64,000 nt of DNA from a virus: the IMG/VR virus record IMGVR_UViG_3300027969_000047; one strand, written 5' to 3'. Under the pieces are notes generated by a model. It was not told where the DNA came from and did not search any database. It was given only the letters and a program-made list of their open reading frames with translations. Each line of letters starts with the position of its first letter. Position 1 is the stretch's first letter. The translations under genes were made by a program, and so were the position numbers. This document shows positions 32,092 to 44,662 of this stretch, piece by piece.

Positions 32092-32703
32092 CTATCTAAA
32101 AAATTGCAACATGCTTTTGACTTCATTGCCTAAGTCTTGCACGGTACCATTGTTGTCAATCACATAATTGAATTCAGAACCAATCCAGTCCCATTCCGAT
32201 TTGTGAATACCTTTATCTGCCATACCCATGATTGCAGATGAGAAACCTTGATTGGCATCTTCTGCAAGATAATACCAAACAGGCTCTGGTCCTCTTTTTA
32301 CTCGAACAACAACTCCATTATTGTCTTGAATGTATTTGATTTCGTTTTGAAACCTAACATCAGTCACTACAACATCTTTGTTTTTTGCACGATTAAGAAG
32401 AGATATTACCCACAGGTCTTGGTGAAAGACATTTCTACCAGCCTCAGTTCCCATCAGTTGCAATGCTAGTCTTGGTGTGAATTCATATCCAAATTTTTCA
32501 CTCCAATATGAATCAGGTTTCTCACGCCAAGAACGGGAGACCTCGGTGTCACCTTCCAGTAACTCCCGAGGCCAACCGAACATGACAGCGACAGCATCTT
32601 TTAAAGGTTTTGCAAAAGAATCTTTTATAAAACCTTGTTCAACTAATAAGTCACCGACTGTACCTTTACCTGAACCTATGAAACCGACTAACCCAATAAT
32701 CAT
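32092..32703 (-). CDS. 1: Deoxynucleoside monophosphate kinase (T4 gp1-like)
   Basis: GFIGSGKG, SFAKPLKD, LQLMGTE, DVRFQNE, HKSE. Confidence 0.9.
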   Translation of the reverse strand: MIIGLVGFIGSGKGTVGDLLVEQGFIKDSFAKPLKDAVAVMFGWPRELLEGDTEVSRSWREKPDSYWSEKFGYEFTPRLALQLMGTEAGRNVFHQDLWVISLLNRAKNKDVVVTDVRFQNEIKYIQDNNGVVVRVKRGPEPVWYYLAEDANQGFSSAIMGMADKGIHKSEWDWIGSEFNYVIDNNGTVQDLGNEVKSMLQFFR

Positions 32704-33515
32704 AGTTTGCCGGTAAGTTCAGCTACTTTAGGCATGTCACCAGTGAAAGCATATGTTCCAATGTGCTGAGTTTTCATCCATGGACACAACCAAATCTCAC
32801 CACCCATCTTACGCCACATTTGACAGAACATGTAATCTTCTGAAAGATATCTGTCTGTACCACCACCAGTGATTGACTCTTTTGAATCGATTACTGTATC
32901 GAAGTAAGCATGAATGTATCTTGAACCATCAAAGTTTGATTGCCCAACATGGTCTGGTTTGTATCTGATGTTTGGATATTCAACAGCCATCTTATCGAAC
33001 ACATGGCGTTTAACTAACATGTAGCCAGTACCAATCTCCATCACCTCAAGTGGTTCTGTTACTTGAAACTGTGAAGTTCCTTTCACGACATTGAAAACAT
33101 ATTCACCAACAAGTTTCTCTAGTTCACGAGGATTCATGTTAGGATGTTTACGAGCCGCCTCTGCAACATTACCCCAATTGATAGATTTCTTTGGGTATGG
33201 TCCACCAATAACATCTTTATCTAATGCTAACAGTGCAACCACATCTTCTGGATTGTAGTGTACATCAGAATCGATAAAAAGTAAGTGTGTGTAACCTGAG
33301 CGAAGAAATTCATCTACCAAATAATTTCTTGCACGAGTGATTAGTGATTCATTGAACAGAAAAGAAAACTTAGTTTCGATTCCATATTTACCTAATGTAG
33401 ATTGTAAGTCTAAACAGGATTTAATATACATCCCATGAGCCATACCTCCATACATTGGTGTCGCAATGAACACTTTGTGATTTTTCAAATCTTCAACTTT
33501 AACTTGTATTTCCAT
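32700..33515 (-). CDS. GT-A fold glycosyltransferase-like protein
   Basis: IATPMYGG, ESLITRARN, LFIDSD (DxD), LSEDY. Confidence 0.75.
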   Translation of the reverse strand: MEIQVKVEDLKNHKVFIATPMYGGMAHGMYIKSCLDLQSTLGKYGIETKFSFLFNESLITRARNYLVDEFLRSGYTHLLFIDSDVHYNPEDVVALLALDKDVIGGPYPKKSINWGNVAEAARKHPNMNPRELEKLVGEYVFNVVKGTSQFQVTEPLEVMEIGTGYMLVKRHVFDKMAVEYPNIRYKPDHVGQSNFDGSRYIHAYFDTVIDSKESITGGGTDRYLSEDYMFCQMWRKMGGEIWLCPWMKTQHIGTYAFTGDMPKVAELTGKL

Positions 33516-33962: not shown

Positions 33963-35159
33963 TTAGAAAGGAACTTCATCGCCTTTGTATGAAGGTGCAG
34001 TTGCCGTCACTTCAGGCACGGTGTTAGCCATGCTCACGCTTGCATCTACTTTGGTATACAAGTCAAGGAAGGATGCTTTCGTATCTTCATCGAAACGATT
34101 CAGGCAATACTGAATTGCTTTGAGTCGGTCACCAAAGATGCCATATGCTTTCGCAATATGCACAAGACGGCGAGTAGAAATCACTTCATCACAGCCACCA
34201 TCTTCAAAGGTTTTACGAACCGCATCAGCCCACACAACAAGGTTGTCAGCAAATTCATCATCGGCACGACCTTCACTCGCCAATTCTTTCTTAACGATTT
34301 TCTTTTCTACAGTGTTAGGAGCCCAACCTTGTTCGAAGGTAATTGGGAATCGTTCAAGGAAGGCTTCGTTCAGAACATTGGTGAACATGAAACGACCATC
34401 ATCTGAACCTTTACCTTTTGTATTTGCAGTAGCAATGATAGTGAAACCTGCGGCAGGCGCAATCACTTCATTTTTCTTCTTCAAAAGAAACGGCTTACCT
34501 TCAAGGACACGCTGAAGGCATGAAAGGTTCTGAGCACCATAGTCAATTTCATCGATACACAAAACGGCACCTTGGCGAGCCGCAACAGTCACAGGACCAT
34601 CACGCCATACCATCTCACCATTCATAAGAACATAGTTACCGAGCAAATCACTTTCATCGGTTTCAGGCGTCATTGAAATACAAACGAATTTGCGTTTCAG
34701 TTTAGCACACACTTGTTCAACGGACATGGTCTTGCCGTTACCAGATTGACCAGTGATAAACACAGGATAGAATTTATTCGAACCGATGATACGATTCAAA
34801 TCTTCAAAGTTACCAAAGGGAACATAATTTGAATACAGAGTAGGAACCAGATTCATCTGTTCCATGTCAGTGACAAGGTTTGTAATTTTTTGCATTGTAC
34901 TAGGTGCAGGTGATTGTACTGGCATCTGCAAAACTTGTGCAGTGAGATTCACTTTGGCAGTGGATGCTGGAGCCACAATCGTATTAGGAACTTTATACAA
35001 ACCACGACCAAGGCGGTTCTCTTCTTCTTTTGTAAACCACTGAGGAACTTTCATTCCGTTGGCATCACAAATGGTTTGAATTTCTTTAATTGTGATACTG
35101 GCTTGACCAGTAGCGGCAATCAAACTGAAAAACTTATCACGGTTATCACTTCTAGACAT
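33963..35159 (-). CDS. CobS/MoxR-like AAA+ ATPase
   Basis: GQSGNGKT, LCIDEID, ATANTKGKG, LNEAFLERF, ISTRRL. Confidence 0.92.
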   Translation of the reverse strand: MSRSDNRDKFFSLIAATGQASITIKEIQTICDANGMKVPQWFTKEEENRLGRGLYKVPNTIVAPASTAKVNLTAQVLQMPVQSPAPSTMQKITNLVTDMEQMNLVPTLYSNYVPFGNFEDLNRIIGSNKFYPVFITGQSGNGKTMSVEQVCAKLKRKFVCISMTPETDESDLLGNYVLMNGEMVWRDGPVTVAARQGAVLCIDEIDYGAQNLSCLQRVLEGKPFLLKKKNEVIAPAAGFTIIATANTKGKGSDDGRFMFTNVLNEAFLERFPITFEQGWAPNTVEKKIVKKELASEGRADDEFADNLVVWADAVRKTFEDGGCDEVISTRRLVHIAKAYGIFGDRLKAIQYCLNRFDEDTKASFLDLYTKVDASVSMANTVPEVTATAPSYKGDEVPF

Positions 35160-35194
35160 AATAAAAACCTTTCAACATCAACTAATCAAACTAC

Positions 35195-35250
35195 AGTATA
35201 CCTCAAAACCTACCTTTTGTCAAGTCTTTTTTTGTTGTATTTTTACAACA
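35195..35250 (-). promoter_or_regulatory. Sigma70 promoter TTGACA-N17-TATACT with upstream palindrome TGTTGTA-N4-TACAACA
   Basis: -10 at 35195-35200; -35 at 35218-35223; palindrome at 35233-35250. Confidence 0.85.
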
Positions 35251-37561
35251 CTGCAACTTGGTCGATAAATTTTGAGACTAGAACACGGCTCACTTGTTTC
35301 TTTTTAGAAAATTTCATAAAAGCGGTAGCAAGTTTATTGGAAGTAACTTTGCCTTCAACTTCAATAGAATTTTCTTCAACAGCCAATTCAGAGCCACCAG
35401 GAATCAAATAGAAACGGTTATAGCCTTTTGTATATGATTCAATAAACTTTTGCTTACGCATCAGTTTACCCAATTCACTAGCCTTCTCTTGTCTTTGTTG
35501 ATACTCATGTTCTGGAACATAACCATCTTTAAACAAGGTCTCACCTTTTTCATTGGCATAGTATCTGTACACTGCATTTTTAATGCCGCTAGTTTTTGGT
35601 GATGTTATGTAGAAACCAACAACTTTTGAATTGGTAGTCACTTGCAACATTTCCATAAGGCTAGCAGTCATGCCACGATAATCACGATTGTCAACTTTAA
35701 TCTGCATTTTGCTTTTTGGCTCACGCAAAATAACATTGTCACTTGACCTGAAGTTTTTCAAATGAGAACCATCGTGAACATGGTTGCATGAATCAGAATC
35801 ACCATCATGCAAAATAACAATGTTTGAAATTTCAATATTGTTCACTTTGTTGAAATTCTCAACAACAGGTTTCAATGCAACCAAAGCGGCATTCAAAGGA
35901 GTATTCGACAATGATTCACTGTCTGGTATACGAAGACTATTACGATAACCATTCGACTTTGTATATGAATGCATCAACATTACCAGAGCCATCATTGCTT
36001 TGTTAAACTCAGTGGAACTCATGCGAGAATTAATCATCTCACGCAGGAACACTTTGCTAAAATGCAAGTCACCATTATTCTCAGAAAATTGTTTGAATGC
36101 ATAAGTATCCCAAACATTTACTTTATCATTTGGAAAATCTAAATTACGAACACCAACTTCATCACCGAAGCCATATGCAACAAAAGGAATGTTCACTTTG
36201 CGGCAGAAGGAAACTAGAATCAATAACTGTTCAATAGTACCAGCCATGTTATCATGCATGGAGCCAGACTTGTCGAGCAACATCACTAGACCATGAGACT
36301 TGCCTTTTGGCACTCGCATAACCTTGCGGAAGATTTGGTCATCGATTTTGTAATTGTAGATTTTGCTAATATCAATATCACCAGTGTTCGACAATTTAGA
36401 TTTAGAAAACGATTTTGCGGCTTTACGCATTTCGAATTCTTTAGCTAACAAACCAATGTAACGGTCATTCTTAGAACGGAATTCATTCAACAATTTTTGA
36501 CCACTCAGATTAGGATAGAAATCTGAGTAGTGATTCAAAATCTGTTCATTAACTCGCTTGGCAGGTGTAACAATCTTATCCAAGTTTGCAGTTGGAACAT
36601 TTGCATACACATATTGTTTAGATTTTTCATCTAACAGAGAAGATTCATTACGGCGAAACTCTTCATCGGTTTTGCAAACTGGTTGCTTATACGATTCGGC
36701 AGATTCTTTATAACGATTGATGGCTGAACCAACATCGGACTCTTCAGATTCAGAATCATTTTCTTCATCGGAATCATCGAAGTCATAATCACCTTCACCA
36801 GAAGTTTCGGCTTCTGATTTATCTTCACCATCTTCATCACCGTAGTCGGAATCACCTTCATCGGAACCACCGAAGTCATCTTCCATTTCTTCAGAATCAA
36901 AATCATCTTCACTAGATTGTGATTCAGATTTTTCTTCATCGGCTTCTTCAGCCGCTTGTTTTTTTAATTTCTTAGCGGCTTCTTCATTAGCCTTGTTTTG
37001 CTCATCTTGAGAATAGCCGAAGATTTTTGTAGTAACCCGTTCAACATCTTCCCATGTTTCGCATGATTCTACTTCCTTGACCAACAAGGTTTCTTCATCA
37101 TTGAATTTGACAGGCAGAGTGTAACTAGATTTTGTATAGAGGTTCAGACGGTCGATAAAAAACAGACCATCGATTTCGTTTTCTTTAACACCAAAGAAAC
37201 CTTTTTTGAAAAGACCATGGTATGCATTGACAAACGATTTACGAAGACCAGGATAACGGCGTTTGATTTTCTTTTCGATACGGGCATCTTCAATCACATT
37301 CAGGAAGTGTCGAAAGTTTTTACCTTTTTTCGAAGTGGCAGTGTGCCAACCTTTTTCAGGTGTCTCTAATGCGTGACCAACTTCATGGCCCATCAAAAGG
37401 TCGTACAACTCGCCAGTCATTTCTTGCCAGATAGGGCAGGTCAATGTGCGAGATTTTAAATCAAAGGATGCGGTTTTTACAGGCGCATGTACAATTTGAA
37501 TGTCTTCATTAGCCATCAACTTGGCTAGTTGGGACTTAGACTCAACAGAAAAATTTGTCAT
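35243..37561 (-). CDS. Zincin (HExxH) + acidic linker + VWA domain protein (CobT-like partner)
   Basis: HEVGH, NVIEDARIE, D/E/S-rich tract, DKSGSM MIDAS, LHDGD. Confidence 0.88.
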   Translation of the reverse strand: MTNFSVESKSQLAKLMANEDIQIVHAPVKTASFDLKSRTLTCPIWQEMTGELYDLLMGHEVGHALETPEKGWHTATSKKGKNFRHFLNVIEDARIEKKIKRRYPGLRKSFVNAYHGLFKKGFFGVKENEIDGLFFIDRLNLYTKSSYTLPVKFNDEETLLVKEVESCETWEDVERVTTKIFGYSQDEQNKANEEAAKKLKKQAAEEADEEKSESQSSEDDFDSEEMEDDFGGSDEGDSDYGDEDGEDKSEAETSGEGDYDFDDSDEENDSESEESDVGSAINRYKESAESYKQPVCKTDEEFRRNESSLLDEKSKQYVYANVPTANLDKIVTPAKRVNEQILNHYSDFYPNLSGQKLLNEFRSKNDRYIGLLAKEFEMRKAAKSFSKSKLSNTGDIDISKIYNYKIDDQIFRKVMRVPKGKSHGLVMLLDKSGSMHDNMAGTIEQLLILVSFCRKVNIPFVAYGFGDEVGVRNLDFPNDKVNVWDTYAFKQFSENNGDLHFSKVFLREMINSRMSSTEFNKAMMALVMLMHSYTKSNGYRNSLRIPDSESLSNTPLNAALVALKPVVENFNKVNNIEISNIVILHDGDSDSCNHVHDGSHLKNFRSSDNVILREPKSKMQIKVDNRDYRGMTASLMEMLQVTTNSKVVGFYITSPKTSGIKNAVYRYYANEKGETLFKDGYVPEHEYQQRQEKASELGKLMRKQKFIESYTKGYNRFYLIPGGSELAVEENSIEVEGKVTSNKLATAFMKFSKKKQVSRVLVSKFIDQVAVL

Positions 37562-37586: not shown

Positions 37587-37781
37587 CTACAGTATAGCAC
37601 ATTCGGCGGTGCTTGTCAAGTAGTCAGAAAGTTGTTGTCTCAACTCAGGTTTCTGAGACAGAAGTTCACAAAGAAAAGTTTGAATACCTTGGCTTTCAAT
37701 CAATTCTACTACATCCATAGTTACAAACGATAGTTGCATTTCATCAACATCTATCAAGTCATTGAGGGAAGTAATCGGCAT
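37587..37781 (-). CDS. Small hypothetical early protein
   Basis: 64 aa; AAGGA RBS; own promoter. Confidence 0.6.
   Translation of the reverse strand: MPITSLNDLIDVDEMQLSFVTMDVVELIESQGIQTFLCELLSQKPELRQQLSDYLTSTAECAIL
37591..37619 (-). promoter_or_regulatory. Sigma70 promoter TTGACA-N17-TATACT
   Basis: Same TATACTGTAGT start region as the two neighbouring promoters. Confidence 0.85.
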
Positions 37782-37810: not shown

Positions 37811-37866
37811 AGTATACAACAGAACCGAGGTCCTGTCAAGTGTTTTTTTGTTGTATTTTTACAACA
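37811..37866 (-). promoter_or_regulatory. Sigma70 promoter TTGACA-N17-TATACT with upstream palindrome TGTTGTA-N4-TACAACA
   Basis: -10 at 37811-37816; -35 at 37834-37839; palindrome at 37849-37866. Confidence 0.85.
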
Positions 37867-39444
37867 TCATGGCTTGTAAAATATGAAAATTGGTTCGTAT
37901 TTCAGCCACATATCACCTTTAATCTTACAGAAGTTTTTCGCTTTTGGCAAGCCAGTCTCTGTATCGATTCGATTACCACCTGGCATTTGTGCGAGTGCCA
38001 TTTTCAACTTACCTTGATACTGCATACCAAGACTTGTCAGAATGTCCATTGAGTCTTGCTCAAGTGGTAACATGTCACCATCGAAGACTGCATCTGCAAT
38101 GTTCCATAAAAGATATCTATCATTCTTCAAGTACTCTACACATGTTTCAAGTGTCTTACGAAGAAAACCTTCTCGCCACAAATCGTATTGAGAGAACTTT
38201 TTGTATGACTGTTCTTCATCTTCAGAGTAAGCCTCTTTCGCAAAGTATGGTGGTGAAGTAAAGATTAAGTCTAGCTTACCTTTGTACTTTTGAAACTTAG
38301 GGTCTTTGCTAATCTCTTCAGAGCCATGTTGAAAGATTTCGTATGTGTGTGTTTTTGGGTACAGTGTTCCTATTGCTCTTGTAGTTTTTGTATTAAAGAA
38401 GTCGGCGAACTCGTGATACTTTGTACGACCGATTGAGGTATCATGGTCTCTATTAGGGTCTGTTCCGATATAATGTATATTACGCTCATCGTCAATAGAC
38501 ATAGCGCCAAGCAAGCGCCCACCCCAACCAGAAGATGGGTCGTAAATATTGATTTGGTCTTGGTCTTTAAATTCATTAGTGTATCGTTCATAGAGATATT
38601 TCGCAGTCAATGGTGGAAAGTTTACAGCATATTGACAGAAAGAAACACGAAAGGCTTTCAATCCAACAGGAAAAAGTTTTTGTCCTTTTTCAAACATTCT
38701 AATTCTAAACATTTTTGCGTTTTTGTATTCGATGTTTGTAATGCAGTGTGCAGGTATTGGAAGAGTATCAATCTCATCACGGGTGAGTGTGATGTATTTG
38801 TTGTTCTTCAACTCTTCATTGTAACCAGTGTATTCTTTATCTTCTTCAGTCGATTCAAGCCAATAGTCATGCGTATCATATCCACGCCATTGAGTCTCAA
38901 AATGTTCAATGAATTCTTTTGCAGATTTTATTTGATTTGTGATTGAGCCAATTTTAATTATTGCACCAATCTGAACTGGTGTAGAGTAATGATAGAATGA
39001 ATCTCTCTTGAAGTGTCTGCTTGCATAAGTGACAAAAGTGTCAAGCAATTCATCTTTAGCAAAGTAATCGTAAATCGATTTACCTTTGTTCACATCTTTG
39101 GTATAGTTGATGCGAGTCTTCATCATTGTTGGGAACCACTGATTAACAGCATTGCCAATTACACTTGTGTTTCGAATCACATCTTCTTCACCTGTCAATA
39201 CATCTTTTACAAGAAATTCATTCACACGAAATGAAGTCATTTTATTGAATTGATTTACAATCTCATGCTCATCATAACCAACTCTAGGCGGTTGACCTTT
39301 CTCATCCCACAACTCAACAACAGTTTTACGAAGGTCGATTACCCATTGGCGAAATTCATCTTTGGTCATCCAAAGAACTTCTTCAAATGTCTTATTGACA
39401 TTCGATTCTATTAATTCTCGATTCTTCTCATAAAAATAATTCAT
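37867..39444 (-). CDS. SAM-dependent DNA amino-methyltransferase-like protein
   Basis: YDPSSGWGGR (motif I) and FTSPPYF (motif IV). Confidence 0.85.
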   Translation of the reverse strand: MNYFYEKNRELIESNVNKTFEEVLWMTKDEFRQWVIDLRKTVVELWDEKGQPPRVGYDEHEIVNQFNKMTSFRVNEFLVKDVLTGEEDVIRNTSVIGNAVNQWFPTMMKTRINYTKDVNKGKSIYDYFAKDELLDTFVTYASRHFKRDSFYHYSTPVQIGAIIKIGSITNQIKSAKEFIEHFETQWRGYDTHDYWLESTEEDKEYTGYNEELKNNKYITLTRDEIDTLPIPAHCITNIEYKNAKMFRIRMFEKGQKLFPVGLKAFRVSFCQYAVNFPPLTAKYLYERYTNEFKDQDQINIYDPSSGWGGRLLGAMSIDDERNIHYIGTDPNRDHDTSIGRTKYHEFADFFNTKTTRAIGTLYPKTHTYEIFQHGSEEISKDPKFQKYKGKLDLIFTSPPYFAKEAYSEDEEQSYKKFSQYDLWREGFLRKTLETCVEYLKNDRYLLWNIADAVFDGDMLPLEQDSMDILTSLGMQYQGKLKMALAQMPGGNRIDTETGLPKAKNFCKIKGDMWLKYEPIFIFYKP

Positions 39445-40181
39445 GCAACATTCCATATTAGGGCACCAGCAGTGCCATGTTCTTTAACGAAGGACCACAC
39501 TTTTGCATCATAACACACTTCCGATGGGTATGGGGGCAAATGTTCTAGCTTACATACTTGGTCAAACTTATATGGTGAACGATATGCTGTCGCTCTACCA
39601 ATCTCTCTCTCATTCATAACATGACCAGTCATTACAATGTTTACATTAGCATCTGGCCATGCCATTTGAAGACCTCTTGACAATGTACCTGAACTGGCAA
39701 CAGTCCATACTTCTTTTGGCACAATTGGCAAAGACTTTGCTACTTTAACTATTGATGCCAATACAGTTGGGTGTTCTAAACCTAGAGGAAGAATTCTACG
39801 ATTGATTGTATCTTCTTCATAGTATTTTTTTGCTTTTGACAAAGTGACATTTAGCATACCCATCTTCACCCAATGAATCGTTCCACCTAAGTCAAGAACT
39901 TTTTGTTGTTGCTCAGTTGGAGTTTTTCTTTCAGCCATGAAGAAGGTTGCTTTCTTTCCATATCTATTACAGACTGCTGTAAGTGAGATAGGACCCCAAC
40001 CAACTTTATTCGCACCACCAAAGACCCATTCAGTTGCAGGGTCTGTCTTAACCAAGTAATCAATGAATCTTACTTTGCTACCATACCCTAACAAGTCATC
40101 ACGAAGTACATTGAAACCTTCATGCAATTCAATAACTGGTTTTGGGTTTGGGTCTTGCCAATCTTCAAATGATTCTATCAT
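39441..40181 (-). CDS. PLP-dependent fold-type II enzyme (ACC deaminase/cysteine desulfhydrase-like)
   Basis: VLRDDLLGYGSKVR (Schiff-base Lys), VASSGT, YDAK. Confidence 0.82.
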   Translation of the reverse strand: MIESFEDWQDPNPKPVIELHEGFNVLRDDLLGYGSKVRFIDYLVKTDPATEWVFGGANKVGWGPISLTAVCNRYGKKATFFMAERKTPTEQQQKVLDLGGTIHWVKMGMLNVTLSKAKKYYEEDTINRRILPLGLEHPTVLASIVKVAKSLPIVPKEVWTVASSGTLSRGLQMAWPDANVNIVMTGHVMNEREIGRATAYRSPYKFDQVCKLEHLPPYPSEVCYDAKVWSFVKEHGTAGALIWNVA

Positions 40182-41256
40182 GTAATTTTTTCTCAGTTTC
40201 TATATCAACAACAAGATGAATTCTTTCTTCATCTCCACCATTCACTGCCATGTGTGGTTTTCTTGTATCAAGAAACCAGCACTCATTTTTTGACATATGA
40301 ATTTTTTGTTCATTACCTTTTGTTCCCCACACAGTAAAAACAACATCATCATTTGTCTTGATTGGGAAATGAAGTCTTGCTACTTTACCAAGTGAACCAC
40401 CAGAGTCAGGGTCTACTTGGTCAGTGTGTCTCTCTAACTCTCCACCGCCAGGTTTCAATCGCATGAATCTCACACGATGAACCTTATCACCAAATTCTTT
40501 TAACAACTCTCTGACTTCAGGAAACACATCATACAATACAGTGTCTTGCAATTCGAAGTTAACATCTTTGTTCTCTTCTTTCCATTTGTCATTCATCTCA
40601 ATTGGCTTAGTGATGAATTCAGGTTCTGGTCTGTATCCACGAAGTGACAATGCACCCCATGATTTGCCTTTGTTGTAGTTGCTGTAATGATTTGTGAACT
40701 CAGGCAACTTCTGCAACTTCTCATAAATTCCTTGAATCAATTCAGGATTCACATCACCAATCTTCTTGATTGATGTATACTCTGCCTTATCGATTACAGG
40801 AAATGGTCTAGCCATTCCTCTGTAGTATATCATATACATCTCACCAAATGTGGTAATCTTTGGACCTACTTGACAGAAACCACAAGTGTGAGCAAGCGCA
40901 TTCATCTCAACATCTTCTGCCCAAACATACATCCAACAATCATCACTGTAGTTGTTGATTCTTTTCTCTAACTCAGCAACATCACCAGTCATGCTACCAA
41001 AAGTAATATCACCTTTTTTCTTGTTTGCAATGACAGTCTTACCATGCATTGTAATTGGCGAAGATGTTTTCGAGATTGATATCTCAATCATTGTATCTTC
41101 TGAAAGAATATGAAGTGAGCCATCATCTAACATACTTGCAATGTTGTTCTTCTTTACTTGAGTAAAAGGTCCGAGAGTGAATGAGTTATACTTCTCAAAC
41201 TTTCCTGCTAGACCTTTGAGGTAGTCTAATTCAAAACCTTTTTGCCATTCTTTCAT
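40165..41256 (-). CDS. GNAT-like N-terminal domain + Asp/Asn beta-hydroxylase-type 2OG-Fe(II) domain
   Basis: C-terminal RFMRLKPGG..HTD...RLHFP...H..VN...RIHLVVD; N-terminal WMYVWAED..NALA..GF..VG. Confidence 0.75.
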   Translation of the reverse strand: MKEWQKGFELDYLKGLAGKFEKYNSFTLGPFTQVKKNNIASMLDDGSLHILSEDTMIEISISKTSSPITMHGKTVIANKKKGDITFGSMTGDVAELEKRINNYSDDCWMYVWAEDVEMNALAHTCGFCQVGPKITTFGEMYMIYYRGMARPFPVIDKAEYTSIKKIGDVNPELIQGIYEKLQKLPEFTNHYSNYNKGKSWGALSLRGYRPEPEFITKPIEMNDKWKEENKDVNFELQDTVLYDVFPEVRELLKEFGDKVHRVRFMRLKPGGGELERHTDQVDPDSGGSLGKVARLHFPIKTNDDVVFTVWGTKGNEQKIHMSKNECWFLDTRKPHMAVNGGDEERIHLVVDIETEKKLHDRII

Positions 41257-41840
41257 TCTACTTGTTCCTGAACTTTAGGTTGAGTCGCTAATCTTCTCTT
41301 AATGTCTACAAGCATTTTCTTTTGTTTCTTTCTAGCCATCTGAACTTTTAGCTGACTAACTTTCTCAACAAAACGAACACCATTCATATGGTCTAATTCA
41401 TGCATGTAACATTGTGCAGTCATGCCTTCAAATCTTTTTTGAATTGTAGTTCCATTGGCATCTTCATATTCTGCTATGATGTATGTAGGCCGAGGAACTT
41501 TCAATGTCATTCCTGGAAAAGAAAGACAACCTTCAGGCTTAATTGTTTCTGGTCCAGTCTCAACGATACGAGGATTGAAACAAACGATATCTGGCATCAT
41601 CACAAAAACACGAAATGGTAATGCACATTGATTTGCAGAGAGACCAAGACCATTGTAATGTTTCAATGTTCTAAGCAATCTTATCGACAAAGACTTTGGA
41701 TCAATCGGTGGATTGACAAAGTTAAAATCAGGCATTCTCATTTTCAGTAATGGAAGATGTTCATCATACACATTGTATGGTTCGTAACTTTCAATTACTG
41801 GTGTTGGTGCTTTTGTGTTAATTACTAGTACTTCACTCAT
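41253..41840 (-). CDS. def: Peptide deformylase
   Basis: GLGLSANQ, EGCLS, HELDH motifs. Confidence 0.93.
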   Translation of the reverse strand: MSEVLVINTKAPTPVIESYEPYNVYDEHLPLLKMRMPDFNFVNPPIDPKSLSIRLLRTLKHYNGLGLSANQCALPFRVFVMMPDIVCFNPRIVETGPETIKPEGCLSFPGMTLKVPRPTYIIAEYEDANGTTIQKRFEGMTAQCYMHELDHMNGVRFVEKVSQLKVQMARKKQKKMLVDIKRRLATQPKVQEQVE

Positions 41841-43549
41841 TTTGCTATCCTCGAAAAGTTTTTGACTTTCTCAAACTTAATAATGTTTCTAAATTTATCT
41901 TGCAGTATGTCACCCTTATGTGAGATGACAAACAGATTCACACCCTCAAGAAGATGCAGAATTTTCATCAAATCATCTGTGCCATTTGTATCTAATGATG
42001 AATCGAATATTTCATCAAGTATCAGTAGATTGGTGTTTGCTGAGTTTTTCAACTTAGCAACAGCCCGCCATGTCAACATCAGTGCCATATCGATTCGTTG
42101 TTTCTCACCTTCTGAAAATGATTCATAAGTGAAATCATCACGATGCCTTGACTTGATTGTTTCTTTGAAGTTCTCATCAAGTGTGAAGTTAACAAAGAAG
42201 TCCATCGAAGCCAAATACTTGTTCACCAACTTGTTGATGACTGGAAGATATTGCTTGATGATTTTTGTTTTGATACCAGTGTCTTTCAAAAGAATAGATG
42301 CGGCATCATAGTAAGACTTTTCATCAAGCAACACTCTCAGTCGATTCTTCAAATCACTGAGTGTTTGTTTCAAAGATGCCAATGCTAATTCTTCAGCATC
42401 TGTGGTATCTTTGGGCGACTTCAATTCTGCAATTTTAGCATTCAATCTATCAATCTGCTTGTTTGTTTCAGTGATGGCATTGTTGTTTGTTGCAATTTTT
42501 ATCTGTAACTGCTGAACAATTTTCTGCACATTGTTTATCTCACCCAATGATTTTTGCAAGCCTTGAAGTTTCGAATCTAGTTCTTTGAGTCCATGCTCAC
42601 ATTCCGCACTCTTGGTCGAAAGGTTGGCAATCTCCGTCTCTTTAAACCCGATGGCAATGGTTTGCCTACAGGTTGGACAATCGTCATTATGTTGAAAGAA
42701 ACTGATATCTTTTCTATATTTGGATACTGTGCTTTCAATTTGCGATTCAAGTTTTGTAATTTTCTTGAGTTTATCTTCCACCACAATCTTATCTGCCAAA
42801 ACTGCTTGATGCGTTTCGACTTGTACGGAGAGGTTAGCAACTTCTCCATGTAGGGTTTGTATAGTACTCTGATGGCTCTGTATCTCTTTAGCATATTCAG
42901 TCACCTTGTCTTCATTGTTCTGTTTCATGCTTGCAATAAATTTCTCTTGCATAGCAATCTTTTCATTTGATGATTCGATTAACAACTTACTATCTGAAAG
43001 ACCTTGCCTGTTCTCAGATAACTTTAACCTAACAATACCATTCATAGCAGAGAAAATCTGAATGTCTAGCAAGTCTTCAATGATTGCTCTACGGTCATTT
43101 GCACTCAACTGCATGAAAGGAGTGAACGATGCTGAACCAAGAAGAACAATCTGTGTGAAAGATTTGTAATTCAATTTGAGAATGAATTTCTCAAGAAAGT
43201 CTTGATAGTCTCTTGCGGCGGCATCTTGGTTCAGCAGTTCACCATTCTGATAGATTTCAAACACATTCGGTTTGATACCACGAATAATTTTGAACGACTT
43301 GTTGCCTGTATCGAATTCAACTTCTACAACACATTCTTTAGCATTGATTGAATTCAACAGTTGCGGCTTGTTGATTTTACGAAACGGTTTACCAAACAAA
43401 GCAAAGCACACGCCATCAAGCATTGTGCTTTTACCAGAACCATTTGCACCAACAACTAGTGTGTTTTCAAATTCATCAAAACGAATCTCTGTGAAATGAT
43501 TGCCAGTTGAGATGAAGTTTTTATATCTAAGTTTACGAAAAATTATCAT
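41837..43549 (-). CDS. 46: Recombination endonuclease ATPase subunit (Rad50-like)
   Basis: GANGSGKS, CPTC hook, SFSEGE, LDE. Confidence 0.97.
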   Translation of the reverse strand: MIIFRKLRYKNFISTGNHFTEIRFDEFENTLVVGANGSGKSTMLDGVCFALFGKPFRKINKPQLLNSINAKECVVEVEFDTGNKSFKIIRGIKPNVFEIYQNGELLNQDAAARDYQDFLEKFILKLNYKSFTQIVLLGSASFTPFMQLSANDRRAIIEDLLDIQIFSAMNGIVRLKLSENRQGLSDSKLLIESSNEKIAMQEKFIASMKQNNEDKVTEYAKEIQSHQSTIQTLHGEVANLSVQVETHQAVLADKIVVEDKLKKITKLESQIESTVSKYRKDISFFQHNDDCPTCRQTIAIGFKETEIANLSTKSAECEHGLKELDSKLQGLQKSLGEINNVQKIVQQLQIKIATNNNAITETNKQIDRLNAKIAELKSPKDTTDAEELALASLKQTLSDLKNRLRVLLDEKSYYDAASILLKDTGIKTKIIKQYLPVINKLVNKYLASMDFFVNFTLDENFKETIKSRHRDDFTYESFSEGEKQRIDMALMLTWRAVAKLKNSANTNLLILDEIFDSSLDTNGTDDLMKILHLLEGVNLFVISHKGDILQDKFRNIIKFEKVKNFSRIAK

Positions 43550-44625
43550 TCTATATTTTCTGTATTCAAGGCTTCAACATAAAGTTCACGCATGAATGTT
43601 TTCAGTTTCTCATTGTCAACATTGAGTTCTAAATTGTCAATGTATTTGGAAAGAATTGTCATTGTATCTTCTGCTTGGTCTACAATGTCTTTATCATCTT
43701 CAATAATTATCTCAGTGAAATCTTCAACAACAGAGATATCAGCTAGACCTGCTTTGTAAAGATTGTCAATCACAGTATCAAACAGATATGGGTTCTGCTT
43801 ATTAACTACAATAACTTTGACATGTGTACCTTGATATTGTGAGTAGTCATACTTTTTCCAATACTCAAAATCATGTTCACTGTCATCATAGACAATCTTG
43901 AAGAACATCTTATATGGGTTCGGAATGAATTCTATTTGACGAGTCTCTGTATCAAAGATATGAAAACCTCTTGTGTCATTATAGTCAGCCCAAGTAATCT
44001 CATACTGATTACCAAGATAGTGTACAACACCATCTGAAGACTTGTGATGAAAGTGTCCAGACAATACCATATCGAATCTATCAAACACATCTCTGTTCAG
44101 ACCTTCATGGCACACATTGCCACGGTCCATTTCAAAGCCAGAGATTTCAAAATGACCAAAGACTAATTGTACTTTAGCATCTTTCAAAAGAGCCATACTT
44201 CTATCATAGTTCTCTTCACATATCCATGGCATCAATAGAATATCAACACCATCGAATGAAACTACTTTAGGGTCATCATAGATGAATGGCTCATTCACAC
44301 CATCATATGAAGTGCAGAGATTTTGAATTGCGTTTACTTTGTTTGTGTTCTTGAAGTAGGTGTCGTGATTACCAATCAAGATGTGTGTGTCAATGCCTTC
44401 TTCCCAGAATCTACGCATGAAACGATTCTGAAAGTCAGATGCAATATTGTGATTGATAAACTTACGGCGGTCAACAACATCACCCAAATGAATACATGTT
44501 TTGATGTTGTGTTCTTTTAGGTATGGAAAGAATGTGTTTTCCCAAAACTTGAAGAAGAAGTCATTGAAGACATGACTGTCTCCACGGGCACCGAAGTGCG
44601 TATCATTTATGAGTGCAATTTTCAT
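43546..44625 (-). CDS. 47: Recombination endonuclease subunit (Mre11-like)
   Basis: DTHFG, LGD, GNHD, SGHFH. Confidence 0.97.
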   Translation of the reverse strand: MKIALINDTHFGARGDSHVFNDFFFKFWENTFFPYLKEHNIKTCIHLGDVVDRRKFINHNIASDFQNRFMRRFWEEGIDTHILIGNHDTYFKNTNKVNAIQNLCTSYDGVNEPFIYDDPKVVSFDGVDILLMPWICEENYDRSMALLKDAKVQLVFGHFEISGFEMDRGNVCHEGLNRDVFDRFDMVLSGHFHHKSSDGVVHYLGNQYEITWADYNDTRGFHIFDTETRQIEFIPNPYKMFFKIVYDDSEHDFEYWKKYDYSQYQGTHVKVIVVNKQNPYLFDTVIDNLYKAGLADISVVEDFTEIIIEDDKDIVDQAEDTMTILSKYIDNLELNVDNEKLKTFMRELYVEALNTENIE

Positions 44626-44633
44626 AGTCTCAC

Positions 44634-44662
44634 ATTATAACAAAAAATGACAAAGGTGTCAA
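44634..44662 (-). promoter_or_regulatory. Consensus sigma70 promoter TTGACA-N17-TATAAT for the gene 47 operon
   Basis: Read directly. Confidence 0.85.

Follow-up and report, generated by a model that had tools for sequence, protein, structure and literature searches.

A probable base-hypermodification module built around an SPPY amino-methyltransferase-like protein in a freshwater T4-like phage

Introduction

What do three overlapping genes, for a GNAT-like/2OG-Fe(II) oxygenase fusion (OXY, protein P0001), a fold-II PLP enzyme (PLP, P0002) and an SPPY amino-methyltransferase-like protein (MT, P0003), accomplish together in a freshwater T4-like phage? The genes are minus-strand ORFs in a 64,000-nucleotide stretch of virus DNA (the window; IMG/VR record IMGVR_UViG_3300027969_000047). 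A first-pass annotation of the window had suggested that the trio forms one pathway, leading to a base adduct beyond plain m6A or m4C. That suggestion has strong comparative support, from gene fusions, from homology of the PLP enzyme to M6 gp52 and ViI gp226, and from a gene cluster of the mycobacteriophage LilMcDreamy. We put a probability of roughly 0.75 to 0.8 on the trio being one post-replicative base-hypermodification module whose target is nucleic acid of the phage itself, most likely DNA. The product of the module is most likely an undescribed amino-acid-derived side chain on phage DNA bases.

The locus

The trio ends an operon that starts at a sigma-70 promoter and includes gp47-like, gp46/SbcC-like and peptide deformylase (def) genes (Table 1). 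The ORFs, coordinates and overlaps agree with the first-pass description, and the promoter that it called consensus matches perfectly, in a region where the total of promoter-like sites is no higher than in shuffles. On the minus strand a single terminator-like site, inside MT, was found among the genes, and none separates them. Translational overlaps join the genes: def and OXY share an ATGA at 41253-41256, OXY and PLP overlap by 17 nt (40165-40181), and PLP and MT by 16 nt. The last overlap becomes an ATGA only if MT starts at its second ATG, 39444, which is also the point where homolog alignments begin.

Table 1. Features of the operon and of the three encoded proteins (positions in the window).
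Feature	Position	Strand	Description
Promoter	44634..44662	(-)	sigma-70 consensus TTGACA-17-TATAAT, TG-extended, 12/12 matches; directly upstream of gp47
gp47-like	43546-44625	(-)	upstream gene, same operon; context, outside module
gp46/SbcC-like	41837-43549	(-)	upstream gene, same operon; context, outside module
Peptide deformylase (def)	41253-41840	(-)	Pfam match; upstream gene, same operon; context, outside module
OXY/PLP/MT trio	37867-41256	(-)	three ORFs
P0001 (OXY), 363 aa	40165..41256	(-)	GNAT-like domain fused to Asp/Arg/Pro-hydroxylase-type 2OG/Fe(II) oxygenase
GNAT-fold domain of P0001, aa 9-150	40807..41232	(-)	fold match; acetyl-CoA loop absent
2OG/Fe(II) oxygenase domain of P0001, aa 155-360	40177..40794	(-)	motifs, fold
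P0001 H277-x-D279 (HTD)	40420-40428		facial-triad positions
P0001 H335	40252-40254		facial-triad position
P0001 R345	40222-40224		presumed 2OG-binding residue
P0002 (PLP), 246 aa	39441..40181	(-)	compact fold-II PLP enzyme, M6 gp52 / ViI gp226 family
P0002 Lys36 (GSKVR)	40074-40076		motif
P0002 SSGT	39684-39695		motif
P0002 YDAK	39501-39512		motif
P0003 (MT), 529 aa (525 aa from 39444)	37867..39456	(-)	phage-specific N-terminal domain + class I SAM-dependent amino-transferase domain
P0003 DPSSGWGG	38518-38541		motif I
P0003 SPPY	38245-38256		motif IV

The three proteins

Each of the three proteins retains its conserved catalytic residues, and the HTD and H335, GSK (Lys36) and SPPY motifs listed by the first-pass annotation were each located. 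P0001 belongs to a family of more than 1100 proteins, every one without a name. Its oxygenase identity comes from a Pfam match to Asp_Arg_Hydrox (PF05118; 51.9 bits against a cut-off of 22.6) and from structural comparison, in which the oxygenase domain, a double-stranded beta-helix, aligns with L-proline cis-4-hydroxylase 4p7x (Z 15.1, rmsd 3.2 A, 178 residues) and with AspH (Z 14.4). H277, D279, H335 and R345 are invariant among 26 homologs, and R345 is, from its position, presumably the residue that binds 2OG. The nearest solved relatives of the hydroxylase include free-amino-acid hydroxylases and a nucleoside-antibiotic hydroxylase. A further relative is gp4 of LilMcDreamy (28% identity over 262 aa), whose neighbours are an ADDT-family amino-acid:DNA transferase, a TET/JBP-like gene and ParB. 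Because gp4 sits in such a ParB/5mYOX-AADT cluster, the hydroxylase family is tied to amino-acid-bearing DNA bases, a link made by this one cultured phage. We propose that P0001 hydroxylates an appended side chain.

Is P0001 also an acyltransferase? A GNAT-like N-terminal domain had been predicted, and at the level of fold it is there: in the AF2 model (pLDDT 91.3), residues 9-150 align by VIA-align with the GNAT 2pc1 (Z 11.6, rmsd 3.5 A, 137 residues), and further with 2fia (Z 10.9), SbzI (Z 10.4) and NAA60 (Z 10.2). A Pfam search of P0001 matched no GNAT family. The Q/R-x-x-G-x-G/A motif A, which binds the acetyl-CoA pyrophosphate, is absent, and alignment with stand-alone GNATs places a 5-residue deletion at that point in P0001 and its orthologs. 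Stand-alone GNAT paralogs adjoining MT in relatives retain the loop, as QGSGNA. Since the loop has been lost here and kept there, the domain is probably not an acetyltransferase, and the acylation that the first-pass annotation had offered as an option is unlikely in this phage.

P0002 is matched only weakly by Pfam PALP (17 bits), and phrog_7093 gives 3e-29. The P0002 family profile matches M6 gp52 at 77 bits, and hhalign of the family with that protein gives a probability of 97.9% (E 4.7e-13, 217 columns). ViI gp226 (YP_004327553) is matched at 48.7 bits (E 4.8e-14), over profile positions 15-175 only. Both proteins have been purified and are PLP-dependent decarboxylases of amino-acid:nucleobase conjugates in DNA, glycinyl- and serinyl-thymidine (PMC8989533). 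The best solved structure for the profile, 1j0a, scores only 39 bits, below both decarboxylases; cysteine synthases, tryptophan synthase beta and the ACC deaminase/D-cysteine desulfhydrase family are also matched. Lys36, in G-S-K-x-R, is invariant in 21 diverse PLP members, which include fused forms and a variant described below, and it aligns with the S-K-I-R lysine of M6 gp52; SSGT is nearly invariant, and YDAK invariant or nearly so. By this homology P0002 is a putative decarboxylase whose substrate would be an alpha-amino acid carried by a DNA base.

P0003 is the module's core enzyme and its constant part. The SPPY motif of such enzymes binds the target exocyclic amine, and D306, G310, G313, S401 and Y404 are invariant in 43 homologs. 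The Pfam match to N6_N4_Mtase, at 27.4 bits, is barely above the cut-off of 26.7. Searches with P0003 gave no match to Met_10/TYW2, aminopropyl transferases or any acp transferase in Pfam (E up to 0.1), nor to the TYW2-Trm5 family in NCBIfam.

Linkage and variation in relatives

Do the three genes belong together? The same order recurs in 54 viral contigs, with PLP identities of 48-98%, so the arrangement is beyond chance. About 10 protein clusters, of about 1084 aa each, carry Asp_Arg_Hydrox, PALP and N6_N4_Mtase in one chain. The domain order of one of them, P0128, is MT(147-397)-OXY(500-808)-PLP(840-1084), permuted with respect to the gene order, and such fusions are therefore not read-through artefacts. 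Two-domain fusions occur in either order, MT-PLP in P0143 and P0306 and PLP-MT in P0345, and in gp1 of Erythrobacter phage R6L a PALP domain lies between motif I and the SCPPY motif of the MT. In Microcystis phage Mae-JY30 and in Comamonas denitrificans, an MTase gene and a PLP gene lie side by side; the association recurs in unrelated siphophages and bacterial islands. On these comparative grounds we regard the three genes as one functional module.

The module is variable, though. Among 63 classifiable T4-like loci scored for partners of MT, MT stands alone in 18, has PLP in 13, GNAT in 12, GNAT-like-OXY in three, OXY-core plus GNAT in four, and OXY plus PLP in 13. One complete genome (G005) has MT without partners. 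In another relative (G001) the flanks are 90-94% identical, yet a different PALP stands at the position of the PLP gene, and a GNAT is present as well. The possibility that the genes occur independently, which the first-pass annotation had named as evidence against a joint pathway, is partly borne out, since MT is found by itself and also with each partner singly. This pattern speaks for a core enzyme to which tailoring enzymes can be added, and against a set of unrelated genes. A glycosyltransferase gene (GT, 32700-33515) was earlier suggested to extend the product; that link finds no support, as the gene does not co-vary with the hydroxylase or PLP gene across relatives.

A proposed chemistry

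How might such a module build its base? A complete 150-kb relative with the module (G002) gave no match to a ThyA-family hydroxymethylase, TET/JBP or ADDT, the three families that the search covered; the partner of its PLP gene is an N6_N4-type MT. The known hmU-based route of amino-acid attachment thus seems to be absent, and we therefore propose that MT installs the 3-amino-3-carboxypropyl (acp) group of SAM. Any one tailoring enzyme can be the sole partner of MT and must therefore be able to use what MT makes. An acp chain is preferred over methyl because all three types of tailoring enzyme act on amino-acid or amine groups, and methyl offers none.

In the scheme that we favor, P0003 would flip out a base and alkylate its exocyclic amine (A-N6, C-N4 or G-N2), moving acp instead of, or besides, methyl, as TYW2 does in tRNA. 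P0002 would then form a Schiff base with the alpha-amine of the appended amino acid and decarboxylate it, leaving an N-(3-aminopropyl) base with a cationic amine. In the third step P0001 would hydroxylate the side chain, in the manner of amino-acid/AspH-type hydroxylases and of TYW5 on the acp chain of wybutosine, with its degenerate GNAT-like domain serving in substrate binding and not in acetyl transfer. Relatives with the core MT alone, or with other subsets of tailoring enzymes, an intact acetyltransferase included, would make different final bases. The analysis shows gene structure, catalytic motifs, folds, homologies, fusions and a combinatorial gene context; from these we infer which polymer is modified and at which atom, that acp is what is transferred, how the steps follow one another and what the module does for the phage. 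The full sequence of acp transfer, decarboxylation and hydroxylation is the most parsimonious chemistry, and we hold it at a little under even odds. The probable benefit of the module would be escape from host restriction and other DNA-targeting defences.

A broader idea is offered more tentatively. The P0003 family could be the first DNA aminocarboxypropyl transferases, specific for an exocyclic amine, with PLP, 2OG and acetyltransferase enzymes mixed and matched to yield novel bases. If so, T4-like phages of fresh and sea water, some siphophages and bacterial genomic islands would widely carry acp-, aminopropyl-, hydroxy-aminopropyl- and N-acetyl-derivatives, and in the islands such bases might be self-marks beside restriction systems.

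Alternative explanations

Might the trio be a joint DNA module with other chemistry? One would then suppose that P0003 is an ordinary N6-A/N4-C methylase, or only a base-flipping or targeting subunit, and that the amino acid arrives by PLP beta-replacement, in which serine, O-acetylserine or cysteine gives rise to an aminoacrylate that the base amine then traps; cysteine-synthase-like enzymes make willardiine or mimosine in this way. Alternatively, the PLP enzyme might decarboxylate SAM first, with P0003 then transferring aminopropyl. Beta-elimination and beta-replacement are the classical reactions of fold-II PLP enzymes, including the cysteine synthases and tryptophan synthase beta that the P0002 profile matches. 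Moreover, the PALP inserted within the R6L methylase would bring both active sites together, and genomes with MT alone, such as G005, fit a plain methylase equally well. However, the nearest characterised relatives of P0002 decarboxylate DNA-bound amino acids and do no beta-replacement, and the pairings of MT with only a GNAT or only a hydroxylase are hard to explain, as methylation leaves these partners without an amino-acid or amine substrate. We consider this combination of ideas unlikely.

The structural neighbours of P0003 raise another question: is the substrate RNA? Its nearest solved folds are tRNA and rRNA amino-methyltransferases, the tRNA m2G enzymes Trm11 (Z 15.3, rmsd 3.0 A, 179 residues), TrmN and Trm14 and the rRNA enzyme METTL5, not DNA methylases, and JGI's automatic names for some homologs are TrmN6. 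The module might then be a phage version of acp/wybutosine-like or m2G/m6A-type chemistry on tRNA or rRNA; TYW2/TYW5 chemistry is known on tRNA only, and a translation-related peptide deformylase lies in the same operon. But generic class I MTases are nearly tied with Trm11 in Z-score, Pfam places MT among the N6_N4 DNA methylases and detects no THUMP or other RNA-binding domain in P0003, and the relatives of MT in R6L, Mae-JY30 and Comamonas are typical phage DNA methylases. The PLP homologs of M6 and ViI act on DNA, the hydroxylase homolog sits in a DNA-hypermodification cluster, and def is missing from many loci that retain PLP-MT. An RNA target is accordingly improbable.

Two further explanations seem to us very improbable. 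The genes could be unrelated neighbours, a plain orphan DNA methylase that happens to stand beside auxiliary metabolic genes, one for an amino-acid hydroxylase and one for a PLP amino-acid lyase, in a hyperplastic T4-like region. Many relatives do have dCMP deaminase, other 2OG oxygenases, PfkB or cupin genes between PLP and MT, so that the gp46-to-MT interval also serves as a hot spot for insertions in general; among the auxiliary genes of aquatic T4-like phages 2OG oxygenases are common, and MT is found alone. The double and triple fusions, the permuted order and the many independent clusters already largely refute this account; the MTase-PLP pairing in unrelated siphophages and bacterial islands and the exchange of one PLP for another in G001 also speak against it. 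The trio could also be a SAM-consuming or small-molecule pathway in which the MT-like domain only binds SAM, for SAM breakdown as anti-restriction (phages do destroy SAM, as with T3 SAM lyase) or for making a modified amino acid or nucleoside in free form, and both the ACC-deaminase-like fold of P0002, which recalls SAM/ACC chemistry, and the free-amino-acid and nucleoside-antibiotic hydroxylases near P0001 would suit it, but SPPY, the target-amine motif, is invariant across the family, the homologies lead to enzymes acting on DNA-bound substrates, and MT occurs without any partner.

Comparison with known systems

How does a DNA-directed module led by MT compare with known hypermodification systems? 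In thymidine hypermodification by phages M6, ViI and PaMx11, an amino acid is appended post-replicatively and then "sculpted" (Lee et al., NAR 2021/22, PMC8989533). Shared with those systems are a homologous PLP decarboxylase family, acetyltransferases as optional tailoring enzymes, combinatorial gene sets and gene fusions in metagenomes. Unlike them, the present module adds a 2OG hydroxylase, and the dUMP hydroxymethylase, TET/JBP and amino-acid:DNA transferase have no counterpart found in G002; the initiating position is occupied by a SAM-dependent (S)PPY amino-methyltransferase-like enzyme. Because that enzyme initiates, the target is probably the exocyclic amine of A, C or G, and not the thymine C5-methyl. 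Clusters of ParB and a 5mYOX (TET-JBP) thymine dioxygenase with AADT are likewise a thymidine-hypermodification architecture (10.1101/2025.08.14.668559). The LilMcDreamy gp1-gp4 cluster, which has no MT or PLP partner and initiates with dioxygenase plus AADT, contains in gp4 a full-length homolog of P0001.

The pairing of a GNAT fold with an Fe oxygenase, and hypermodification at an exocyclic amine, may also bring to mind phage Mu. There Mom, a single GNAT-fold protein with iron-linked chemistry, makes N6-carbamoylmethyl-adenine at the exocyclic amine, and unlike P0001 it has neither an MTase nor a PLP partner.

In the wybutosine pathway of tRNA-Phe, TYW2, which has a class I MTase fold, transfers acp from SAM, and TYW5 then hydroxylates the acp chain. 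The latter step is a 2OG/Fe hydroxylation (PMC2938197). By our proposal the phage module would be analogous and no more than that, with a class I MTase-fold enzyme, SAM as acp donor and subsequent 2OG hydroxylation. P0003 has no detectable sequence membership with TYW2/Trm5, so that it may work like these enzymes without being one of them, and P0001 is an AspH/proline-hydroxylase-type oxygenase whereas TYW5 is of the JmjC type. The presumed substrate here is DNA, and PLP decarboxylation is without counterpart in wybutosine synthesis.

A further parallel is the CmoX/CmoA/CmoY system of Synechococcus phage S-B43, which makes 5-carboxymethylcytosine. CmoX, a homolog of C5-cytosine MTases, transfers carboxymethyl to DNA from carboxy-SAM that CmoA supplies; an ATP-dependent amide ligase acts next (PMC12783734). 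The module described here has no CmoA, and its MT, of the amino-(N) type, is joined by PLP, hydroxylase and GNAT partners. If our scheme is right, in both cases a phage DNA-MTase homolog would transfer a non-methyl "handle" for further enzymes, and in both RNA-modification chemistry would have been turned to DNA in aquatic phages.

The locus and its phage

Three genes of this phage, which encode an oxygenase with a GNAT-like domain (P0001), a fold-II PLP enzyme (P0002) and a methyltransferase-like protein (P0003, hereafter MT), probably act jointly to hypermodify a nucleic-acid base. We put the probability at about 0.75-0.8. The first-pass annotation had proposed that the trio forms one such pathway, and both gene fusions and the homologies of the partner proteins favour the proposal; the three overlapping genes and the motifs it described were all found in the sequence.

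Features of the module and its surroundings in the window
Feature	Coordinates	Strand	Remarks
Extended sigma-70 promoter, perfect	44662-44634	-	ahead of gp47, gp46, peptide deformylase, then the module genes
P0001, 363 aa	40165-41256	-	overlaps neighbouring module gene
P0002, 246 aa	39441-40181	-	overlaps neighbouring module genes
P0003, 529 aa	37867-39456	-	start possibly 39444, giving ATGA overlap
Near-consensus promoter (TTGACA-17-TATACT)	37811-37839	-	directly past MT stop codon
Near-consensus promoter (TTGACA-17-TATACT)	37591-37619	-	directly past MT stop codon
772-aa protein without Pfam match and CobS/CbbQ-like AAA ATPase	33963-37561	-	directly downstream of MT
Anp1-like glycosyltransferase	32700-33515	-	adjoins dNMP kinase

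The phage is a T4-like myovirus whose gp46 is 48% identical to gp46 of Synechococcus and Methylophilales myophages, and genes for clamp loader, clamp, dNMP kinase, UvsW and a CobS-like ATPase lie near the module. Its source is fresh water, as near-identical sequence occurs in freshwater metagenomes from at least ten studies. A nucleotide search of the module region against cultured phages gave no match. Short contigs of three metatranscriptome libraries map onto all three module genes, which is not proof of transcription because contaminating DNA is a possible source; stretches that they leave bare carry no meaning. In most relatives the MT gene is likewise followed by the 772-aa protein and the CobS/CbbQ-like ATPase. 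The three families are large, with over 400, over 1100 and over 3000 members; no source searched gives a functional name for any of them, and NCBIfam has no family for P0001, P0002 or P0003.

Fusions and linkage

The strongest result for the trio working together is the existence of fusions. In about ten clusters all three Pfam domains are joined in one protein of ~1084 aa, and in one of these, P0128, the domain order is MT, GNAT-like/oxygenase, PLP, which differs from the gene order in the window; this permuted order excludes a read-through artefact as the origin of the triple fusion. Fusions of MT and PLP domains are found in both orders (P0143, P0306, P0345), and Erythrobacter phage R6L has a methylase whose motif I and SCPPY motif are separated by an inserted PLP domain. 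Microcystis phage Mae-JY30 and two bacteria, Comamonas denitrificans and Giesbergeria, have a PLP gene immediately after a methylase gene. In the gene pair of C. denitrificans CCUG 44425 (L156:4271-6048) an N6_N4 methylase gene overlaps a PLP gene of the P0002 family (35% identity). The pair lies on the margin of a block of ORFs without annotation, adjoining housekeeping genes, and makes this strain a tractable natural carrier. Since unrelated genomic backgrounds carry the association, it is more than inherited synteny.

MT-PLP fusions are also found in bacterial islands, where their neighbours include an integrase and a Type ISP restriction enzyme. In one such island, on a 217-kb bacterial metagenome contig (L145:7340-18043), the fusion P0143 (680 aa) is flanked by a phage integrase, a Type ISP restriction-modification enzyme of 1636 aa and two unknown genes; one of these encodes 229 aa and overlaps the P0143 start, the other encodes 308 aa. 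Hosts may use the same modification as a self-mark.

Exchange of partners among relatives

Seen from the PLP side, the order gp47-gp46-(peptide deformylase)-oxygenase-PLP-...-MT is kept in 54 viral contigs, four of which lack the oxygenase. The census from the MT side covers 63 classifiable loci. MT stands without a partner in 18; it is joined by PLP in 13, by GNAT in 12, by the GNAT-like oxygenase and PLP in 13, by an oxygenase core and GNAT in four, and by the GNAT-like oxygenase in three. One complete 168-kb genome with MT has neither partner anywhere, in a search that included a positive control.

The nearest relative found for the window phage is 90-94% identical to it on both sides, in oxygenase and MT. 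Between them (L007:5390-6705), in the place of P0002, stand a PALP enzyme of 295 aa without BLAST similarity to it and a GNAT of 143 aa whose acetyl-CoA motif is intact. The exchange has the look of a recent cassette swap. PLP enzymes of the replacing type are also fused to the MT family of P0003 (P0306, P0345). Other relatives hold a dCMP deaminase, two other 2OG-Fe(II) oxygenase families, a PfkB kinase and a cupin between PLP and MT (L022:6726-8629, L026:6753-7429, L048:6999-8973); these are unrelated insertions. An ORF of ~81 aa recurs directly after the PLP gene in relatives.

Is the nearby glycosyltransferase part of the pathway, as the extender that the first-pass annotation suggested? 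In about 55 related loci it co-occurs with MT-alone and GNAT-only cassettes and is missing from several oxygenase-PLP-MT phages; its presence does not track the oxygenase or PLP genes. Without such co-variation we reject it as a pathway member for now.

The partner proteins

The C-terminal half of P0001 scores 51.9 bits against Pfam Asp_Arg_Hydrox, which makes it a 2OG/Fe(II) oxygenase of that type; H277, D279, H335 and R345 are invariant across the homolog alignment. Among solved structures, the high-confidence model (pLDDT 91) is close to L-proline cis-4-hydroxylase (Z 15.1), to AspH and to a nucleoside-antibiotic hydroxylase. A GNAT fold spans residues 9-150 (2pc1, Z 11.6), and this domain is homologous to the stand-alone GNAT that adjoins MT in other phages; an ESM Atlas feature search with the N-terminal part gave sub-threshold leads only (0.82, 'N-acetyltransferase'). 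The stand-alone paralog keeps the acetyl-CoA motif Q-G-S-G-N-A, whereas in P0001 this loop is deleted, and for that reason we read the domain as a non-acetylating remnant. Acylation by P0001 itself, one of the steps first envisaged, is accordingly unlikely.

P0002 is a short fold-II enzyme with an invariant Schiff-base lysine, K36; its family conserves an SSGT phosphate loop and a specific tail, PPxPSxxxYDAKxW...WNV. The family profile matches gp52 of Pseudomonas phage M6 (77 bits; hhalign 97.9% over 217 columns) and gp226 of Salmonella phage ViI (48.7 bits), both above the best solved structure, 1j0a (39 bits). On these scores P0002 belongs to the only family of PLP enzymes for which action on DNA-attached amino acids is known: M6 gp52 and ViI gp226 were purified by Lee et al. 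and decarboxylate glycine or serine already on thymine in DNA (PMC8989533). A distant P0002-like PALP domain (27% identity) occurs with a VP39-like (PARP_regulatory) methyltransferase region in P0148, a 1430-aa protein of a 134-kb JGI contig.

The sole cultured-phage homolog of P0001, LilMcDreamy gp4, comes after ParB, a TET/JBP-like gene and an ADDT-family amino-acid:DNA transferase, an architecture reported for thymidine hypermodification (10.1101/2025.08.14.668559). A search for further relatives of gp4 returned only LilMcDreamy itself. Considered as a P0002 homolog, gp3 of that phage proved not to be one; it is the ADDT-family transferase. Through the homologs of the one and the gene context of the other, P0002 and P0001 each point independently to amino acids on DNA.

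A proposed pathway and its alternatives

How might an amino acid reach the DNA? A complete 150-kb relative that carries the module has no ThyA-family hydroxymethylase, TET/JBP or ADDT, so the known route is missing, and the triple fusion suggests that the pathway is self-contained. PLP, GNAT and oxygenase can each be the sole partner of MT, so each must accept what MT makes. The PLP enzyme depends on an alpha-amino acid, and the GNAT, which resembles the N-alpha-acetyltransferase RimI, needs an amine; the oxygenase family of P0001 hydroxylates amino-acid side chains. The simplest route to a common substrate would be transfer by P0003 of the 3-amino-3-carboxypropyl (acp) group of SAM to the exocyclic amine at which SPPY-type enzymes act. 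The predicted product in the window phage would then be a hydroxylated N-(3-aminopropyl) base. We hold this full scheme on DNA tentatively, at slightly less than even odds. A different chemistry on DNA, by PLP beta-replacement or prior decarboxylation of SAM, is unlikely.

The fold of P0003 itself is that of class I SAM enzymes, and its motifs I and IV read DPSSGWGG and SPPY. Its best fold matches are tRNA m2G methylases, as one would expect if the module acted on RNA, but these are nearly tied with generic methyltransferases, and we consider an RNA target quite improbable. In whole-model fold searches the ~250 N-terminal residues ahead of the catalytic domain matched no known fold, from which fold novelty does not follow. 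A complex prediction for P0003 and P0002 scored 0.00, below the mark, and counts neither for nor against binding. Five full-length MT homologs of 725-771 aa (P0271, P0273, P0274, P0277, P0288) are longer at the C-terminus by ~190 aa, a stretch that matched no Pfam family and no PLP, oxygenase or GNAT sequence and that may represent an additional partner domain. That the module genes are unrelated neighbours is contradicted by the fusions and is very improbable, and a role in SAM or small-molecule metabolism is equally so.

Comparison with known hypermodifications

No description of the module, as aminocarboxypropyl or MT-PLP phage DNA modification, was found in open-access papers and bioRxiv. 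If the scheme is true, a methyltransferase-like start on an exocyclic amine would open a second way into complex DNA bases, independent of the first, and would probably enlarge the natural nucleoside repertoire. Given the family sizes and the ten or more freshwater studies, so abundant a module would alter how environmental phage DNA behaves in studies of sequencing, restriction and defence. The triple fusions and compact two-gene versions, the latter with cultured carriers in C. denitrificans CCUG 44425, R6L and Mae-JY30, would offer easy experimental entry and possible tools for site-specific DNA amination.

To our knowledge, all amino-acid-derived DNA hypermodifications described so far begin at a 5-hydroxymethyl pyrimidine. 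The module would be of their post-replicative type, but with a new initiating enzyme and probably a new target atom as well. In wybutosine synthesis TYW2 acts and is followed by TYW5 (PMC2938197). This sequence parallels the scheme proposed here, and a parallel for non-methyl transfer is phage CmoX, which is homologous to methyltransferases and puts carboxymethyl on DNA (PMC12783734). As in the thymidine hypermodifications of Lee et al., tailoring genes are swapped around a constant core, and such swapping around MT would be the expected product of an arms race with host nucleases.
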